Source of the DNA: a virus
Reading direction: 5' to 3' (one strand)
Virus record (IMG/VR): IMGVR_UViG_3300028578_000003
Coordinates: 32,001-96,000 of that record
Length of the DNA: 64,000 bases
Every line of letters begins with the position of its first letter. Position 1 is the stretch's first letter. Under the pieces are notes generated by a model. That model was not told the origin of the DNA. It saw only the letters and a list, made by a program, of their open reading frames with translations, and ran no database searches. The position numbers and the translations under genes are program-made. Below are positions 3,893-13,536 of the stretch, in pieces.

Positions 3893-3906
3893 GTTACCCC
3901 AACTAC
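3893..3906 (-). promoter_or_regulatory. 14-bp asymmetric operator-like motif GTAGTTGGGGTAAC
   Basis: Exact copies at 3893, 7751 and 10677; one-mismatch copy at 10780; all in the same orientation. Confidence 0.7.
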
Positions 3907-7025: not shown

Positions 7026-7201
7026 GCTGTTCTCCTTCGATCTGGGTAGGTGGCCGGTCGTGCACCGGGACCACTCGGCACCCGGCCGCCGTGAGGCGGT
7101 CGAGCACCGGGCAGCACCGACAACCCGCCCGGTACGCCCTTTGGCAGCACCGTGCGGGGCCTTACCGCGCTGCTCGCACCAAGGCGGCCGATGCCACCCC
7201 G

Positions 7202-7345
7202 CTACGCTTTCCAGCCGCCGATGCGGCGGCGCCGCTTCGACCAGCTGAAAAGCGGCTTGGCGTTGCGCGTCCCCGCCGCCTTCCGGTGGCTGACGGTCCG
7301 GTGCCGGGAAATGCTCCGGCCGCAACTGCTCATGGTGTGGTTCAT
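7202..7345 (-). CDS. small Arg/Lys-rich peptide (47 aa)
   Basis: SD GAGAGGGG; MNHTMSSCGRSISRHRTVSHRKAAGTRNAKPLFSWSKRRRRIGGWKA. Confidence 0.45.
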   Translation of the reverse strand: MNHTMSSCGRSISRHRTVSHRKAAGTRNAKPLFSWSKRRRRIGGWKA

Positions 7346-7357
7346 GGGTGGCCCCTC

Positions 7358-7651
7358 TCAGGCGTAGGTGATGCTGTCGATGAGTCGGCTGTGCCGGTCG
7401 CGGGAGCTCTCGCCGTCGCGGCGACCCGGCCGCGTGTAGTGAGTGCCGCCGCCGGAGCTGACCGGGCCAGCGGGCATGTCGGTGCGCGCAGTGGTGCCCG
7501 GCACCCGGACCCCGTCCGGGTAGAAGACACCCGCGACCTGGTTATTCAGCGTGACCACGACACCGCTGCACCCGTTGCGTCGTGCTGGCGCCAGACCGGT
7601 GATCCGCTTGCCGTTCAGGAAGGCCCCACGGCGCAGGTCTTTCGGGAACAT
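7358..7651 (-). CDS. hypothetical protein
   Basis: SD GAGGAG before ATG 7651 (MFPKDLRRG). Confidence 0.7.
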   Translation of the reverse strand: MFPKDLRRGAFLNGKRITGLAPARRNGCSGVVVTLNNQVAGVFYPDGVRVPGTTARTDMPAGPVSSGGGTHYTRPGRRDGESSRDRHSRLIDSITYA

Positions 7652-7679
7652 GCCGACTCCTCGTGTCGCTGCGTACCGC

Positions 7680-7744
7680 TCTGGCACGACACGGCGGGCC
7701 GCCCGGACGCGAGTGCGCCCGGACTTCCCACCGGTACCGCGTCA
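7680..7744 (-). repeat. conserved intergenic long hairpin, copy 3
   Basis: CGGTGGG-AA-[GTCCGGGCG..CGTCCGGGC]-GG-CCCGCCG-TGTCGTGCCAGA. Confidence 0.75.
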
Positions 7745-7750
7745 GGTCGT

Positions 7751-7764
7751 GTTACCCCAACTAC
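7751..7764 (-). promoter_or_regulatory. 14-bp operator-like motif
   Basis: Exact copy just after the stop of gene 7769-9172. Confidence 0.7.
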
Positions 7765-7768
7765 CGCG

Positions 7769-9172
7769 TCAGGCCGACTTGTGCATCCGGTTGCCCACAC
7801 CCGGCACGCTCCGGACCGCCGCCACGAGAGCCGAAGTCAGCAGGTCGCCATCGACGTCAGCGCCGCCCCACTCCACCACGGTCATGACCAACTGGTGGTT
7901 GACCTTGTCGCGACGCACCTCGATCTTGACACCGAACTTGTTGGTCACCGCCCGCAGGACCGCCTGACGCACCTTCGTGGCAACCTCGTTCCGCGACTTG
8001 CCCGACAGGCCAGCCTGAAGCCTGAACTGCCACCCATCCGTCGCGGACCGCTCCGCCTGGTCCTGCTCCACCACCGGCTGCGCCGCCTTGCGCGCCTTGC
8101 GGCCCGGCTTCTCGGCAGGCTCCGGCTCCACGTCCTGGACCGCCACGCCCAGCTTGCCCCGGCACAGCGCGCCGCCGAACGGCCGCTCGTGCATGTCCAG
8201 CCGACCGTCAATCACCGGCTGCTCCGTACGGCACGAGGGGCACTTCGCCATCTCCGGCGCCGGAGCGGCCGTAGCCGGCAACGCCAGCAGGCCCGACAGG
8301 TCCAGCTTCGCTGGGGCAGGCTCCGCCGCAGGCGCCACGGGCACACCGGCGCAGGTGTTGCACTTGACCATCGGCATACCAGCCGCGTCCCGACCGATAC
8401 GCCCGGTCTCCCGGTCCAGACCCACGGCGCCGCACCCGCCGCACGTCTCACGACCCACACCCAAACCCCAATACAGGGCGTTGTGCGCCGCGTCGAACGC
8501 CCGCTGCCACTCGCGGAGCTGCTGCGCCGTGCGCTTCACGGGCAGCGGCTCACCGTTGACCTCCGTGACGATGTCGGTCTCCACCCGGTACAGCGGCACC
8601 CCATCGACCTGCTCCGCCGCCAGACGGGTGAGCAGCGCGTTGATCCGGTCCATGTCCGGCGCGAACCCACCGGTCCGGGGCAGGTAGAACGCATCCTGCT
8701 TCGCCCGCCACCAGAACCAACCCTCGCCGCCCTTTTTCGCCGTTCCGACGATCAGGTGAGCCCGAGAGTGCTGCTCCACCCCGTGGATCACGGTCGGGTG
8801 CTCGCCATCGTGGACCAGCCGCAGCGTGACGGTCTCCACCTTCGGGGTCTCCACCTTCGGAGCCGGCACGGCCTTCTTCGCCACCGCCTTCTTCGGAGCA
8901 GCCTCCACCTTCGGCGCCGCCGGCGCGGGCGTCTCCTCGACAGGCTCCGCCGCCTCCTTCGCCGCGATCTCGTTCGACAGCCACTGCGCCACCTCGGCGA
9001 ACGTCGGTGTCGGCTGGCCCGCCGCACCCGGGAACCGGAAGTCCGGGTACTTCTGCGCGCCCCGCTTCGCCTTAGCGAGCGCGTTCTTCAGCTTGCCCTC
9101 GTTATTGTCCGTGAGGACCTGCTTCGCCAGCACCAAGCGAGGGTCATCCGTTTTCGTAGCCGTAGCCGCCAC
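7769..9172 (-). CDS. first gene of the leftward operon; multidomain hypothetical protein with Ala/Pro/Lys linker and Cys pairs
   Basis: GTG 9172 after GGAAGGTGAG; phage-like codon use; CGGC, CNTC and CPSC pairs. Confidence 0.75.
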   Translation of the reverse strand: MAATATKTDDPRLVLAKQVLTDNNEGKLKNALAKAKRGAQKYPDFRFPGAAGQPTPTFAEVAQWLSNEIAAKEAAEPVEETPAPAAPKVEAAPKKAVAKKAVPAPKVETPKVETVTLRLVHDGEHPTVIHGVEQHSRAHLIVGTAKKGGEGWFWWRAKQDAFYLPRTGGFAPDMDRINALLTRLAAEQVDGVPLYRVETDIVTEVNGEPLPVKRTAQQLREWQRAFDAAHNALYWGLGVGRETCGGCGAVGLDRETGRIGRDAAGMPMVKCNTCAGVPVAPAAEPAPAKLDLSGLLALPATAAPAPEMAKCPSCRTEQPVIDGRLDMHERPFGGALCRGKLGVAVQDVEPEPAEKPGRKARKAAQPVVEQDQAERSATDGWQFRLQAGLSGKSRNEVATKVRQAVLRAVTNKFGVKIEVRRDKVNHQLVMTVVEWGGADVDGDLLTSALVAAVRSVPGVGNRMHKSA

Positions 9173-9179
9173 TTTTCTC

Positions 9180-10641
9180 ACCTTCCGTGGTCGATCGGTC
9201 ATTAGCAGACCGCACCGTGCGCACTCCACTGCGCGCCCGGTCTGGAGAGCCAATGCGCCTTAGGTGCGCCGGCCGGTCGGTTACCCAACCGGCCGGCGCC
9301 CAAGAGATAGATGTCCCGTCACACTCGGAACACAGGTTCGCGTGTGTCCGGGGCGCTACACCCGGCTCACTACGCCACGCTAGGCAGGGACATACCTGAG
9401 AACACACCTCCGGCCCGGCGTCACTCGGGACGGTCGCCCTTACAGGCGTAGGTTCTGTGGCGATCATCGACCGACCCGCTCCCGCGAGTCCGCCTCGACA
9501 CGGGTGCCTTTGCACCCCCCGCTCCTAGGACGTGGTAAGCCCATCATCGGTAGTCGGTGGCTCCGGTCCGTGACCCTTACCGGCATCAGATGCCGGACCC
9601 TCGCACGGGACCATCCGAGCGCACTGTGCACGCTCCCGCCATGCCCCCCACCAGGCCCCGATACGGGCGGGTAGGGAACCGCTCTGGTGTTCAGAGCCCT
9701 AGCGCGCTAGGCGAGACGCACCCGCCTAGCAACATTTCCCCTGGCAATGTGTCAATGAGAGATACCACTCTTCCGCTCGCCTCACGGCGATCCGACAACC
9801 CTGCCTCACGGCGGGTACCTAAGCCACGCTAGTGGTCGCCCGAAGGCATGAAGGCGCGCGGTATCGGTCTCGCATAAGCGCCACCCTCCGCTGATCAGAT
9901 CAGCGGCTAGCTTGCATCCCGTGGTCTCTCGCGCCTAAAGCATGGTTGGCGTCGGCGCAGGCCATTCAATGGGGAATCACACTATTCACGTTTCAAGGAA
10001 CACCGGCCGGACACAGTCCGGGCAAGACTGCGCATACGCCCTTGCGTCGCGCTTTACGTCTCACGCACCGTCCCCGCAGAAAGCGCAGCCATCCCCTTGA
10101 CATCACACGGATGCCCGGATCGGAGGCACACTCGCCCGATTGGGTCTAGTGCCGGAGCTAGCAGCTGGTGATGTCAGCGCACGGGGAACCGCTGGCAGTC
10201 AGACTGCCCGCTATCCCTGGTGTGCACCCCGTCACCCCTATGGCTAGCGCGCCCGGTCAGACCGGGTGAGCGCCGCGCCATGCGGTCGGTTTGCTAGCCG
10301 TATTCGATTCACAAGTAACGGGTGCCCGGTCAGACCGGGCCGTGCCAACCCCGGTCAGACCGGGGGCCTAGCGTGTGCACCCGGTCAGACCGGGCCGTGC
10401 CTTACGTAAACAGCAAGGGGAGGAAAGCATCGGTCCTAGGGGTCGCCAGAAGGCTTCCCGTTCTTCAGCAATTACAGCGTGCCCCGGGTGTTACCGGAGG
10501 ATCTGCCTACCACTGCTTGTGCCGATTGCCGCGTACCCACCATGCCGCCTTGCGTGCAAGCGGCCCGACTGATAGCGATTCACGGATGGCCCATTTCAGA
10601 AACGGGATACCGTCCGCTTACTCGCCTGCCGTTCGCTTGCG
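9180..10641 (-). ncRNA. candidate ~1.4 kb structured non-coding RNA / 5' leader
   Basis: No credible ORF; lower GC; about a dozen CTAG; many hairpins whose GNRA loops and G-U pairs work only on the minus strand; downstream of two promoters. Confidence 0.6.
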
Positions 10642-10647
10642 AGTGCC

Positions 10648-10690
10648 ACTCTGCCGGTCCATTGGCCACTTGTCAAGTTACCCCAACTAC
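10648..10690 (-). promoter_or_regulatory. housekeeping-sigma promoter P2 with abutting operator
   Basis: GTAGTTGGGGTAAC-TTGACA-17 bp-CAGAGT. Confidence 0.7.
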
Positions 10691-10749
10691 TGCCATTGCT
10701 AAGGGGATCGCTTGGCTTCCTGGCTTGCCCTGCTCGGTGGAACGCAAGT

Positions 10750-10793
10750 AGCTTGCGCTCCGCCCAACCCCCTTGTCAAGTTACCCCGACTAC
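10750..10793 (-). promoter_or_regulatory. housekeeping-sigma promoter P1 with abutting operator
   Basis: GTAGTCGGGGTAAC-TTGACA-18 bp-CAAGCT. Confidence 0.65.
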
Positions 10794-10794
10794 A

Positions 10795-10810
10795 TGTGAC
10801 CCAGGTCACA
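10795..10810. promoter_or_regulatory. CRP/GlxR-type binding site
   Basis: TGTGA-CCCAGG-TCACA, a perfect TGTGA-N6-TCACA consensus. Confidence 0.6.
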
Positions 10811-11134
10811 ATCGCCCCCTTTTAATTGCTAAGAGGAATCGCGCGCAATGCGCACGCGCGGTTCCTTACTAAGCAAAGGGGGATCGATTCCTCTCGATGG
10901 ATCCAAGATCAACCCCCGGGGGTACCCCTCCCCCGTACCCCGGCGCGCGCGCCATCGGCGGGTTCGGGGCCTCGCGGTACGTACAGGTCCAAAACTCCTG
11001 AGCCTCCAAAGTTTCCGGGATGCGCGCGTCTGCGGCGTGTCTGCTGACCTGCGGATATAGGATCGCGACCGTGACCGCCGGGGTCGGGCGGCGGGAGGCC
11101 GCGCAGCCAAGATCACCCCCGGCCGCTGCCATGG

Positions 11135-11875
11135 ATGCTCCCCGTCACCACCTCTTCCCCGTACGCTCCCGGCATGCTCGATCCCCGCATACGCCAGCTC
11201 ACTTCCAAGGCAGACGCAGTCGCCGCCGCGCGTACGGTGACGACTCCGGACGAGATCGGACGGTTCGAGGAAATAGCGAGACAAACAGAGGCTGGTCGCG
11301 AATACCTAGCGTCGGGCGAATGGCTTTCCTATCGCGCGGTAATTGCCAGTCGTGGGGCCACCCCGACCAGCCGACCTAAGACACTCGCGGAGCTGGCTCG
11401 ATATCTGCAATACCGCGCCGACCAGGTCCCCGAAACCAGCGACCCGGCGGCGGCTCACCGCGACGCCTACCGGCTAGCCGCCTTCGAGGTCTCCGCGCTG
11501 GACATACAGCTCGCGAGCACGGTCACCTGGCCGGTCATGCACAGCGGCATGCGGTTCCCCGAGGCGCTACGCGCGGCCATGAGCGGTGCCCACATCGCCC
11601 GGGCTGGCTGGCCGGCGGGCTCGTACGTGTTGGTGCGGACCGGGTATCCGGCCGGGATCCCGATCAACGAGAACACCGCGGCGGCGACCGGGCTGCCTGT
11701 GGGGACGCCTGGGGTGTTCTTGCCGTACCTCGAGCGCTGCGACGCGAACGAGGCCGCCGCTGTCGCGCTCGGCGTGGCGGGAGAGTACGTGTTCCAGCCG
11801 TGGACGCCGGGCCAGGAGGACGTCTTCGGCGGCGACTGGCGGGCGATCAGTGGGAGGGCGGGGCTGCTGACCTAG
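11135..11875 (+). CDS. DUF2829 (Tad2-like) domain protein with N-terminal extension
   Basis: C-terminal MRFPEALRAAMSGAHIARAGW...FLPYL...PWTPGQEDVFGGDW matches the DUF2829 pattern; the start could be 11174. Confidence 0.75.
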   Translation: MLPVTTSSPYAPGMLDPRIRQLTSKADAVAAARTVTTPDEIGRFEEIARQTEAGREYLASGEWLSYRAVIASRGATPTSRPKTLAELARYLQYRADQVPETSDPAAAHRDAYRLAAFEVSALDIQLASTVTWPVMHSGMRFPEALRAAMSGAHIARAGWPAGSYVLVRTGYPAGIPINENTAAATGLPVGTPGVFLPYLERCDANEAAAVALGVAGEYVFQPWTPGQEDVFGGDWRAISGRAGLLT

Positions 11876-13022
11876 TCTGCGGCCCGTCGGTGTCCGGGTA
11901 CCAGCGGCGGTACTCGTCGACGTGCTCGGCGACGTGCCGTCGGCCGGCTTCAGTGAGTTGCACTCGAGGTACGGTCTTCGCCTCGCCCGGGTAGCGGCGC
12001 AGGTTGAGTGCCTGGACCACCTCGACCAGGCCGCCGCCTTTGCGGGCGGCGAGCCGCTCGACGGCCGCGGCACTGCCGGCGGTCTTCTCGGCGCCGTAGA
12101 GGCTGATCTGCCCGTCCGGGATGTCGAGCACCGCGGCGGGTACCTCGTCGTCGTACTGGGTGTAGTCGCGGGCGAGCAACTCGCGTTCCGGCGAGCGGCC
12201 GCGCTGCTCCAGATCGGTCAGCCACACGAGCAGCCGCCACTCGGTGACCTTCACCAAGTGCCGCGGCTTGCCCTGGTGGTCGACCAGGCCCTCGTGCGCC
12301 CCGTCGACGTCGTCCGGCTCGATCCCGGGCACGGCCGGGTACAGCTCGGCGTAGCAGCGGTGGTGCAGCTCGGCGTGCCGGCGGCCGCGGGCACTGGGCC
12401 GGTACCGGTACTTGCCGCCGGCCTGGAAATCCTCCATGAGCTCGCCGTCTTTGCGGTCGCGCAACCCCAGGAGCGCGTTCCACGTTGGCCCGTACTCGGG
12501 GCTGTCTTTGGGCAAATCCCAGCGGTCGGTGTCGGTGAGACAGCCCTGCTCGCCGGCGTTGTAGAGCCTGGCCAGCGCGCCCCAAAGCCACTCGGACAGC
12601 AGGCCCTCCGGCGCCTTCGCCGGGCGCGGCTCGTCGAGACCTGCCCGGGCGGCCGCCCGGCCGGCCGGGGTCAGCTTCACGAGTAGCACGTCAGCCATGC
12701 CAAATCCGACCTGCCGAAAGTCGCCCCGCTCCTCGATCAGGCCGCGCGTGCGCAGCACCTTAAGGGTCGACCCGGCGCCCGGATCCAGCTTCCCCTCATG
12801 CTTCAGTTGGGCCTGGATGCTGCTGTGATTTCCGGGGCCCTCGACGGCGTAGAGCTGCCACCGCCATTCGCTCGCCGGCGGGGGCTTCTCCCAGCGCTTG
12901 CGGGCCGCGGCGATTTCCTCTTCGGCGTCCTGGTCGAACTGGTAGATCACACGCAGGTACGCGCGTTGGCGTTCGTTCAGCTGCTCCCACGCGGTGCGGG
13001 CCTTGGCTGCTTGGGTTGGCAC
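11847..13022 (-). CDS. hypothetical protein with repeated winged-helix-like units
   Basis: Three segments ending LTPAGR / PSARGRRH / LTEAGRRH; GTG start inferred. Confidence 0.65.
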   Translation of the reverse strand: MPTQAAKARTAWEQLNERQRAYLRVIYQFDQDAEEEIAAARKRWEKPPPASEWRWQLYAVEGPGNHSSIQAQLKHEGKLDPGAGSTLKVLRTRGLIEERGDFRQVGFGMADVLLVKLTPAGRAAARAGLDEPRPAKAPEGLLSEWLWGALARLYNAGEQGCLTDTDRWDLPKDSPEYGPTWNALLGLRDRKDGELMEDFQAGGKYRYRPSARGRRHAELHHRCYAELYPAVPGIEPDDVDGAHEGLVDHQGKPRHLVKVTEWRLLVWLTDLEQRGRSPERELLARDYTQYDDEVPAAVLDIPDGQISLYGAEKTAGSAAAVERLAARKGGGLVEVVQALNLRRYPGEAKTVPRVQLTEAGRRHVAEHVDEYRRWYPDTDGPQTRSAAPPSH

Positions 13023-13203
13023 GGCGGCACAGTATCGCGTAGGTGTGACGGGATGTCGGTTCTGTCGATTCAGGGGTTGTGACCTGGGTGTCGTGTCCGG
13101 ATTGACACGAGTGCTTAGGCCGCCCATTATGTCCACATTGGCGGTCTCTGCCCTGCGACGGGTGGGCCGCTTTTCCGCGTACTGGCGGGGAGGTGAGCTA
13201 GAT

Positions 13204-13536
13204 GTGACCCAGGAGCGGGCCCGGCCGGCGTGGGCGGGATCGACGCGGCGTGACCGGCTGCCCCCGAACTGGGATGAGCTGCGGGCGGCGAAGGACGCGG
13301 AGAACCCTGAGCACGTCTGCCACCGCTGCGGGTTGCCGGGCGGGTCAGAGCTCGACCACCTGCTGGCCGGCGACGACCACCGGCTGGACAACCTCGACTG
13401 GATCCACAACCGGGCGGACTACCTCGCGGGGCGGTCGCGGGAGAACTGCCACGGGAAGAAGTCCGGGGCGGAGGGCGCGGCCGCGCTGGCGGCGATCCGC
13501 CGCAGGCCGCCAGATATCCATCCCGCGCTGCGGTGA
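13204..13536 (+). CDS. HNH endonuclease (packaging-associated)
   Basis: W.GSTRR.RLP.NW, CHRC, ELDH, DDHRLDNL, CHGKKS; SD GGAGG. Confidence 0.85.
   Translation: MTQERARPAWAGSTRRDRLPPNWDELRAAKDAENPEHVCHRCGLPGGSELDHLLAGDDHRLDNLDWIHNRADYLAGRSRENCHGKKSGAEGAAALAAIRRRPPDIHPALR

Follow-up and report, generated by a model that had tools for sequence, protein, structure and literature searches.

A conserved, multi-domain leader RNA of about 1.47 kb at the head of a leftward operon in a high-GC phage

The IMG/VR virus record IMGVR_UViG_3300028578_000003 (163,217 bp, rated complete, about 70% guanine plus cytosine, GC) was analysed over a stretch of 64,000 nucleotides (nt), bases 32001-96000, which we refer to as the window and whose numbering is used throughout. 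Between a minus-strand, leftward gene at 7769-9172 and a rightward open reading frame (ORF) with similarity to Tad2 the window holds a gap, and we find that the minus strand of this gap specifies a phage RNA that is real, unusually large, non-coding, conserved and heavily folded and that belongs to no catalogued family. The RNA occupies the whole distance between a conserved promoter and the first gene of the leftward operon. We favor the interpretation, with a probability of roughly 0.6, that it is a multi-domain leader of a repressor-controlled early operon, antiterminated in the style of rrn operons and nut sites.

A conserved gap without a gene

Third-position GC bias is strong up to ~9100 and resumes at ~11400. 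In between, from ~9140 to 11350, the GC-frame plot is flat, the codon positions differing in GC by 0.02-0.22 as compared to 0.3-0.44 in the flanking genes. No sense-strand ORF is conserved in position among the relatives introduced below, and the antisense ORFs occupy frames that differ between relatives, with a GC content at third positions (GC3) of 0.56-0.80 versus about 0.9 in genes. One antisense ORF, at 9187-9399, seemed position-conserved and was dropped as its frame shifts between relatives and it displays no GC3 bias. By both measures, third-position bias and an ORF kept in frame among relatives, the region does not behave as coding. Many ORFs of 35-130 codons can be drawn here, as any GC-rich DNA allows, and it is on these that a reading of the gap as small protein-coding genes or decayed pseudogenes would have to build; the flat frame plot, the lack of a position-conserved sense ORF, the frame changes and GC3 values of the antisense ORFs and a conservation pattern that is helical rather than triplet all speak against it. 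We give this reading next to no weight, the coding interpretation being close to excluded.

The leader region is furthermore the lowest-GC part of the window (0.63-0.64 versus ~0.70), and 13 of the 56 CTAG tetramers of the entire genome fall in 9180-10900, where 9.3 are expected, so that the local number is near expectation, whereas the genome overall is depleted (56 versus 128 expected). The local enrichment is due partly to the absence of coding depletion and partly to conserved CUAG-containing helices (GCGCUAGG with CCUAGCGC). An earlier note, made from the letters of this DNA, had pointed to the lack of a credible ORF, the lower GC content and about a dozen CTAG tetramers that are scarce in the flanking genes, and all three observations hold.

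The 454-467-residue protein encoded downstream of the gap has homologues in 12 metagenome contigs besides the window; a large protein database supplied ten (39-77% identity), and a metagenome scan added more. Upstream DNA was obtained for ten relatives, and the leader comparisons comprise these ten together with the window phage, in total 11 sequences, some of them closely related. In every relative with the upstream side on record (11 of the 12), 1.2-1.5 kb without a called gene precedes the homologue; in the two relatives listed without DNA the gene starts ~1.5 kb into the contig and nothing is called before it. In contigs of sufficient length, the order of a divergent Tad2-like gene, the gap, the gene of the cysteine-rich downstream protein, small genes and a DarB-like helicase is maintained. 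The gap of the ten relatives aligns with the window minus strand over essentially its whole length, at a nucleotide identity of 58-92% that equals or exceeds that of the adjacent coding sequence, while protein identity is 44-59% for most relatives. Leader identity in the two closest relatives amounts to 92% and 90%, versus 84% and 73% for the coding sequence. Since the gene-free stretch is kept in place and evolves no faster than the neighboring gene, it is under selection.

The family is so far limited to the window phage and its 12 metagenomic relatives (10 with upstream DNA). A blastn search of the region against phage and plasmid collections gave no match, searches of IMG/VR with the flanking proteins, a protein alignment and DNA patterns recovered no relatives, and a protein search of the GTDB species genomes no relative of the downstream protein. 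Two matches to a 21-nt RNA motif, in metagenome-assembled genomes of a Paraflavitalea and an alphaproteobacterium, are without every other leader feature and were set aside as chance.

A folded RNA on the minus strand

The alignments were generated with MAFFT from sequence alone and are thus not fitted to any structure. For the whole leader (alignment A2, 11 sequences) RNAalifold predicts 332 pairs, with standard pairs in 92% of the cells and compensatory changes at 135 pairs. Alignments of three sections gave the following.

9189-9435, minus strand: alignment A3, 67 predicted pairs, 26 of them compensatory
9372-9734, minus strand: alignment A4, 104 predicted pairs, 30 of them compensatory
9732-10365, minus strand: alignment A5, 109 predicted pairs, 45 of them compensatory

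The 26 compensatory pairs of A3 compare with 13.5 +/- 2.2 in shuffles, none of 500 of which reaches any of five measures, and sliding the pairing partners of A3 by 1-3 columns lowers the pairing from 92.9% to 29-40%, with 4-12 compensatory pairs. The alifold energy of the 3' section is -320, against -190 +/- 7 in column shuffles (z -18.7); the middle section has a z score of -9.0 and the 5' section one of -10.9, and in all three compensatory pairs are two to three times commoner than in the shuffles. For the 3' and middle domains, G-U stand to A-C combinations as 203:35 and 110:19 on the sense strand, compared to 77:86 and 32:51 in the best antisense structure, and this excess of G-U over A-C assigns the RNA to the minus strand.

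Rfam 15, with families such as GOLLD, ROOL, HEARO, OLE, group I/II introns, riboswitches and C4 in scope, yielded no match in the whole window at gathering cut-offs. At expectation (E) values up to 10, the region 8900-11200 gave 11 weak hits of 14.5-21 bits versus cut-offs of 39-90, none of which is credible; those to C4 and c4-a1b1 were rejected as chance. A search for tRNA and transfer-messenger RNA found none, and a literature search retrieved no description of such an RNA in actinobacteriophages. The earlier note had proposed an undescribed large non-coding RNA or regulatory leader on the minus strand, and had named Rfam and covariation among homologues as the checks to run. Both have now been run, and with no catalogued family recovered, position and sequence conserved in all ten relatives with upstream DNA, significant covariation and the G-U excess on the sense strand, that proposal is supported.

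From 5' to 3', the RNA is laid out as follows.

9173-10642, minus strand: entire structured leader RNA (~1470 nt), built as a series of closed multi-branch domains and not as one globule
10556-10640, minus strand: 5' stem-loop domain; helices in columns 35-125 of alignment A2 are 85-96% paired, with 2-4 compensatory pairs each
10590-10606, minus strand: first UCUGA-capped hairpin, in the 5' domain, with a G-U pair
10400-10555, minus strand: variable insert of ~150 nt, present only in the window phage; none of the ten relatives has it, not even L004 with its 92% identity; no coding signal
10379-10395, 10349-10365 and 10324-10340, minus strand: array of three UCUGA-capped hairpins in a boxB-like position
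10319-10307, minus strand: boxA-like motif 1, GUUACUUGUGAAU (family consensus GUUCAUUGAGAA), unpaired, directly 3' of the UCUGA hairpin array
10156-10299, minus strand: domain closed by a 7-bp helix that is 100% paired, with 4 compensatory pairs; holds the conserved AACCGACCGCA
10252-10266 and 10194-10208, minus strand: UCUGA hairpins within the preceding domain
10005-10137, minus strand: two hairpin domains with the conserved motifs AGGGGAUGGCUGCGC and ACGUAAAGC
10001-9989, minus strand: boxA-like motif 2, GUUCCUUGAAACG, unpaired, ~300 nt after motif 1
9985-9976, minus strand: boxC-like AAUAGUGUGA, near-invariant, unpaired, 3 nt after boxA-like motif 2
9736-9976, minus strand: multi-branch domain with GNRA-capped hairpins at 9798-9816 and 9772-9795 and a UCUGA hairpin at 9888-9906
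9377-9730, minus strand: largest domain, covered by alignment A4; closing helix GCGCUAGG/CCUAGCGC, 9698-9705 with 9377-9384
9706-9730, 9643-9679 (14 bp), 9580-9596 (UCUGA) and 9436-9447 (GNRA), minus strand: hairpins of the largest domain
9200-9375, minus strand: 3' domain, with a hairpin with an invariant GUAGCG loop at 9340-9375, a hairpin at 9312-9332 and the invariant AUCUCUUGG
9263-9301 and 9200-9255, minus strand: 17-bp hairpin and terminal domain at the end of the 3' domain, covered by alignment A3
9186-9177, minus strand: Shine-Dalgarno sequence GGAAGGUGAG of the first gene
7769-9172, minus strand: first gene, encoding a conserved cysteine-rich protein of unknown function; GTG start at 9172-9170

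The GNRA hairpins predicted in the earlier note exist, at 9263-9301, 9436-9447, 9772-9795 and 9798-9816. The first, with its 17 bp, is 99% paired in the 11 sequences with eight compensatory pairs, includes a G-U pair that is valid on the minus strand only, and carries the loop GUAA in the window phage and U[C/U/G]UGA in most relatives. The conserved GNRA loop of 9436-9447 is GUAA, GGAA, GUGA or GCGA among relatives, and those of 9772-9795 and 9798-9816 are GUGA, GCGA or GGGA, a variation as seen for real tetraloops. The terminal domain ends ~15 nt before the Shine-Dalgarno sequence, which is unpaired in the consensus. The consensus structures are pseudoknot-free RNAalifold models, of which two differ in detail, and adjacent identical palindromes may be drawn as separate hairpins or as paired with each other, depending on the prediction.

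The other recurrent cap is a U-N-U-G-A pentaloop (UNUGA), mostly UCUGA. The window phage has eight such hairpins, with loops starting at 10600, 10389, 10359, 10334, 10261, 10203, 9899 and 9590, and the relatives 5-9 each; ten leaders together hold 72, with 0 on the antisense strand. Throughout the 163-kb genome, 10 of 222 UNUGA pentamers cap a stem of at least 5 bp, and eight of those ten are located in the leader. The stems vary within and between genomes (CCCGG, CCCGA, CCCG, GGCAG, CCGGCA, ACCCAA, GATCCGG and others), and the loop is constant. Varying stems beneath a fixed, strand-polar loop favor a hairpin read as RNA over a site in double-stranded DNA.

This bears on the possibility that the leader is a DNA-level element, such as a replication origin or a partition or packaging site, with the palindromes as protein-binding sites or cruciforms. 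Four identical 15-bp perfect palindromes, spaced 25-73 bp apart in the leader, are indeed iteron-like, the region has the lowest GC in the window, the phage has a ParB-like gene and the 5' array shows no G-U strand bias. However, recognition of double-stranded DNA does not require stems that differ while their pairing is kept, nor a hairpin center that is always T on the gene-sense strand (72 versus 0), and the G-U/A-C asymmetry, the long-range covarying helices across 1.1 kb and the GNRA loops that vary as RNA tetraloops do also argue for RNA. An iteron origin or an operator array in double-stranded DNA would have a conserved site sequence and no strand polarity, and here the stems vary and the center is T-polar. 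A regulatory or origin region with protein-binding palindromes was consequently dropped, given the varying stems, the fixed strand polarity and the G-U asymmetry. We deem the DNA-element reading very improbable and close to excluded.

Promoters, operators and boxA-like motifs

Three features precede the leader.

10648-10690, minus strand: main promoter P1, with operator GTAGTTGGGGTAAC at 10690-10677, -35 box TTGACA at 10676-10671, a 17-nt spacer and -10 box CAGAGT at 10653-10648
10774-10793, minus strand: outer promoter P2, with operator GTAGTCGGGGTAAC at 10793-10780 abutting the -35 box TTGACA at 10779-10774; the -10 box CAAGCT is weak
10795-10810, no strand assigned: predicted Crp/GlxR-type palindrome TGTGACCCAGGTCACA (TGTGA-N6-TCACA, perfect), just upstream of the P2 operator

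The two TTGACA promoters pointing into the region, as claimed before, are thereby recovered, and those relatives that have DNA at this location conserve the P1 pattern (TTGACA/TANNNT in short), with GGGGTNACTTGACA-N16/17 followed by TAATGT, TAGTGT, TAACGT or CAGAGT. The position of P1 predicts a transcription start at ~10641-10646 and thus a leader of ~1470 nt up to the GTG at 9172. Tandem copies of operator and -35 box also occur in relatives L010 and L012, and TGTGAYNNGGGTCACA, matching the Crp/GlxR-type palindrome, is kept in L004, L006, L007 and L008.

The asymmetric 14-bp motif GTAGTTGGGGTAAC has ten copies in the genome, nine exact and one with a single mismatch, located at 3893-3906, 7751-7764, 10677-10690 and 10780-10793 of the window and at genome positions 14030, 14056, 30785, 30811, 108375 and 109322. 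It is found at both leftward promoters, and two intergenic copies of the leftward operon are co-oriented and lie just before long hairpins; four copies form two inverted pairs 26 bp apart, and two cover the spacer and -10 box of rightward promoter-like sites. An asymmetric motif at the -35 box that is repeated and co-oriented with transcription is what defines L5-type stoperators, and these copies would qualify as such by sequence. In the Pleft/gp71 system of mycobacteriophage L5, with gp71 as the repressor, an asymmetric 13-14-bp site likewise overlaps the early leftward -35 box and recurs co-oriented inside the operon, whereas its motif is unlike GTAGTTGGGGTAAC and L5 is not known for a 1.4-kb structured leader. 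The presence of the operator/stoperator-like motif at the promoters and inside the operon supports the notion that the leftward operon is early and repressor-controlled, which we find plausible.

Within the leader, the boxA-like GUUCNUUGAGAA is present in two copies, conserved in 10 of 10 sequences and located in predicted single-stranded linkers. A position weight matrix built from 20 instances finds only two matches on both strands of the 163-kb genome, both in the leader. In sequence, the motif is similar to the boxA consensus published for B. subtilis, AUGAUCUUUGAAA, and for E. coli, UGCUCUUUAACA (PMC13753749). In M. tuberculosis, boxC-derived RNA contacts the KH domains of NusA via a critical AUA (PMC2724277), and the boxC-like motif of the leader contains AUA. 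T7 is an established case of a phage with boxA behind early host promoters (PMC3709561). In likeness of sequence, the leader thus would have the arrangement of rrn and nut sites: a single-stranded boxA-like motif 3' of the promoter, boxB-like UCUGA hairpins next to the first boxA-like motif, and AAUAGUGUGA in the place of a boxC after the second. These motifs and the UNUGA hairpin family, neither of which the earlier note had listed, offer the best clue to the way the leader works.

The mycobacterial rrn leader probably reads close to UGUUGUUUGAGAACUCAAUAGUGUG, which would be a near-match to boxA-like motif 2 and the motif following it and gives a lead only. Searches of IMG/VR with the pattern TTGAGAAYTNNATAGWGTG returned 19 contigs, none with rRNA nearby or UNUGA hairpins, and these were not considered members of the leader family. 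The combined boxA- and boxC-like GTTGYTTGAGAACTCMATAGTGTG also occurs in other IMG/VR viral contigs (L029, L035, L036, L037, L022, L027 and L031; GC 0.47-0.58), in L029 at 8790-8808, outside any long ORF and amid recurring promoter-like motifs. The DNA stretches obtained around these sites revealed no rRNA gene, and the contigs have no UNUGA hairpins; the occurrences hint at the use of rrn-type nut sites by several phage groups.

Possible functions, known systems and neighboring features

On the antitermination reading, departure of the repressor from the 14-bp operators abutting the -35 boxes would permit host RNA polymerase to start at P1 (and P2). The nascent RNA would first fold the 5' stem-loop and the row of UCUGA-capped hairpins, leaving boxA-like motif 1 exposed, followed ~300 nt on by the second boxA and then the boxC-like AAUAGUGUGA. 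If rrn operons, lambda nut and the T7 early region are taken as models, boxA-1 would load NusB-S10, NusG and NusA onto the polymerase, with boxA-2 and the boxC-like motif as reinforcement. So equipped, the polymerase could escape Rho-dependent termination, to which 1.47 kb of untranslated RNA would otherwise be exposed, complete the leader and continue along the operon, which is long and has hairpins between its genes. The other ~1.1 kb folds into four or five closed, covarying multi-branch domains capped by UNUGA pentaloops or GNRA tetraloops. Our best guess is that these caps most likely are docking sites for protein or RNA-RNA contacts, which would render the RNA a multivalent platform. The rrn-type Nus complex is known to aid co-transcriptional RNA folding.

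Several observations weigh against this scheme. As antitermination needs only ~100 nt, 1.1 kb of conserved folded RNA is left without an explanation; antitermination accounts for the motifs and their position, not for the 1.1-kb multi-domain structure. A generic sigma-70 promoter scan called neither P1 nor P2, the -10 box in the window phage being CAGAGT, and per-pair covariation statistics are modest because there are only 11 sequences, some of them close kin. In the 5' hairpin array, composed of perfect palindromes, the G-U to A-C counts show no strand bias (22:12 versus 30:11), and a DNA-level or antisense role of this array could still apply. Finally, in single-sequence folding only some 160-nt windows are more stable than dinucleotide shuffles (9200-9359, 9680-9920, 10160-10480 and 10720-10960, z -3 to -6), and the rest are no more stable, making the case for a highly structured RNA a comparative and not a thermodynamic one. 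The earlier description of the region as highly structured is accordingly upheld by covariation and alifold among the relatives, whereas the folding energy of the single sequence reveals local windows only.

The main rival takes the folded 1.1-1.4 kb itself as the product, a large RNA that would stand alone and act in trans, comparable to GOLLD and ROOL, and that could serve as a scaffold, in multimeric assembly, or as a decoy or sponge with UNUGA loops binding many copies of a host or phage factor; boxA would then only get the RNA made, and the downstream genes would merely be co-transcribed. The size, the modular closed domains and the near-invariant single-stranded motifs exceed what a leader needs, identical loops are repeated on different stems as in multi-site protein-binding RNAs, the neighborhood is rich in counter-defence-type genes (Tad2-like, a HicB-like match and DarB-like), and a 3' end could be marked by the 17-bp GC hairpin, which lies ~90 nt ahead of the start codon. 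However, in the relatives with DNA the RNA is always found between the promoter and the same gene, never elsewhere and never alone, and no U-tract follows the terminal hairpin, leaving this rival a minority possibility, albeit one to be taken seriously. Somewhat more tentatively still, the RNA may belong to a novel class of ornate phage RNAs that are very large (1.2-1.5 kb) and act in their own right; the phage would borrow the host boxA/boxC antitermination and co-transcriptional folding machinery for it, and it would be made first in infection and possibly contribute to counter-defence. The UNUGA helices would in that case be repeated docking modules, with the 5-9 capped helices recruiting one protein in many copies or assembling the RNA into a higher-order structure, a proposal as tentative as the class itself.

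A cis-regulatory sensor, i.e. a riboswitch-like, protein-titrated or temperature-sensitive attenuator that gates access of polymerase or ribosome to the first gene, would suit the 5'-leader position, the conserved hairpin 9263-9301 and terminal domain 9200-9255 near the ribosome-binding site, and the invariance of the single-stranded motifs. It is nevertheless unlikely, with the Shine-Dalgarno sequence free in the consensus structure, no terminator-like U-tract, no riboswitch match in Rfam and a length of 1.4 kb that is far above any known sensor size.

Returning to the antiterminated leader, one of the closest known counterparts is the rrn leader antiterminator (boxB, boxA and boxC; rrnTAC), which shares tandem promoters, hairpins, an unpaired boxA-like motif, an AUA-containing boxC-like motif and a long structured untranslated RNA. 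The phage leader differs in running into protein genes, in its two boxA-like motifs ~300 nt apart, in the fixed UNUGA loop and in being an RNA unrelated to rRNA. The T7 early region (A1-A3, then boxA; PMC3709561) and lambda nut (PMC2724277) similarly place a host-type boxA behind early promoters and combine a hairpin with boxA, but their leaders are short, and lambda needs N bound to a GNRA-like boxB loop; the leaders of the present family instead carry 5-9 hairpins each, whose loop differs, and over 1 kb of additional conserved structure, and no N-like gene was identified here. HK022 put is also a cis-acting, promoter-proximal folded RNA that makes polymerase termination-resistant, yet it consists of two stem-loops of ~70 nt in total, requires no host factor motif, and is dissimilar in sequence and size. 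GOLLD and ROOL are very large, intricately folded multi-domain non-coding RNAs that are often phage-borne (PMC12286853, PMC5737381). The window leader resembles them as a large, multi-domain, phage-associated non-coding RNA, but has no Rfam match (best 21 bits, E up to 10), is about twice as long, and is always promoter-proximal to one gene family, in high-GC phages. The leader hence is a new RNA family that extends a known kind, whether one classes it with the antiterminated early leaders of phages or with the large structured RNAs that phages carry.

To our knowledge, non-coding RNAs above 1 kb are, rRNA apart, extremely rare in bacteria and phages, and the few known examples of large size, GOLLD, ROOL and OLE, proved structurally remarkable. 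The present leader is supported by covariation from only 11 metagenomic sequences and has a defined promoter, operator and downstream gene, and its repeated UNUGA loop invites a search for the binding partner. The data also suggest that phages with high-GC hosts, which are probably actinobacterial, make use of antitermination signals in the style of rRNA operons.

The leftward operon that the leader heads starts with the 454-467-residue cysteine-rich protein, followed by several small genes and the DarB-like giant helicase/methylase at the left edge of the window. The first gene product has no match in Pfam or PHROGs; its AlphaFold model (mean predicted local distance difference test score 75) includes a C-terminal domain with generic ferredoxin-like matches only, which gives no functional clue. 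Elsewhere, the window carries siphovirus-type terminase, portal, protease, scaffold, major head protein and tape measure genes and the ParB-like gene. On the other side of the gap, the Tad2-like ORF (11135-11875, plus strand) displays a coding-type GC3 bias only from ~11400, with the Pfam match confined to residues 139-236. Its true start is probably well 3' of 11135, in which case the non-coding region would reach ~2.2 kb.

Between the Tad2-like gene and the outer promoter there is a second conserved non-coding block, at 10900-11106, which is ~75% identical in L005, L006 and L008 and ~87% in L004, there within a longer match, and may be a rightward promoter or leader. An ORF at 12994-13536 (plus strand), upstream of the terminase region, shows by eye a cysteine/histidine pattern as in HNH endonucleases, a placement as in cos-type phages. 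The first and last 100 bases of the record share an overlap of ~72 nt, pointing to a circle or a short terminal repeat despite the linear label. Another viral contig with 66% GC (L032, IMGVR_UViG_2518285562_000001) carries, in the 4.2 kb from 7030 to 11272, seven type II hammerhead ribozymes that share one strand and each exceed the Rfam gathering score.

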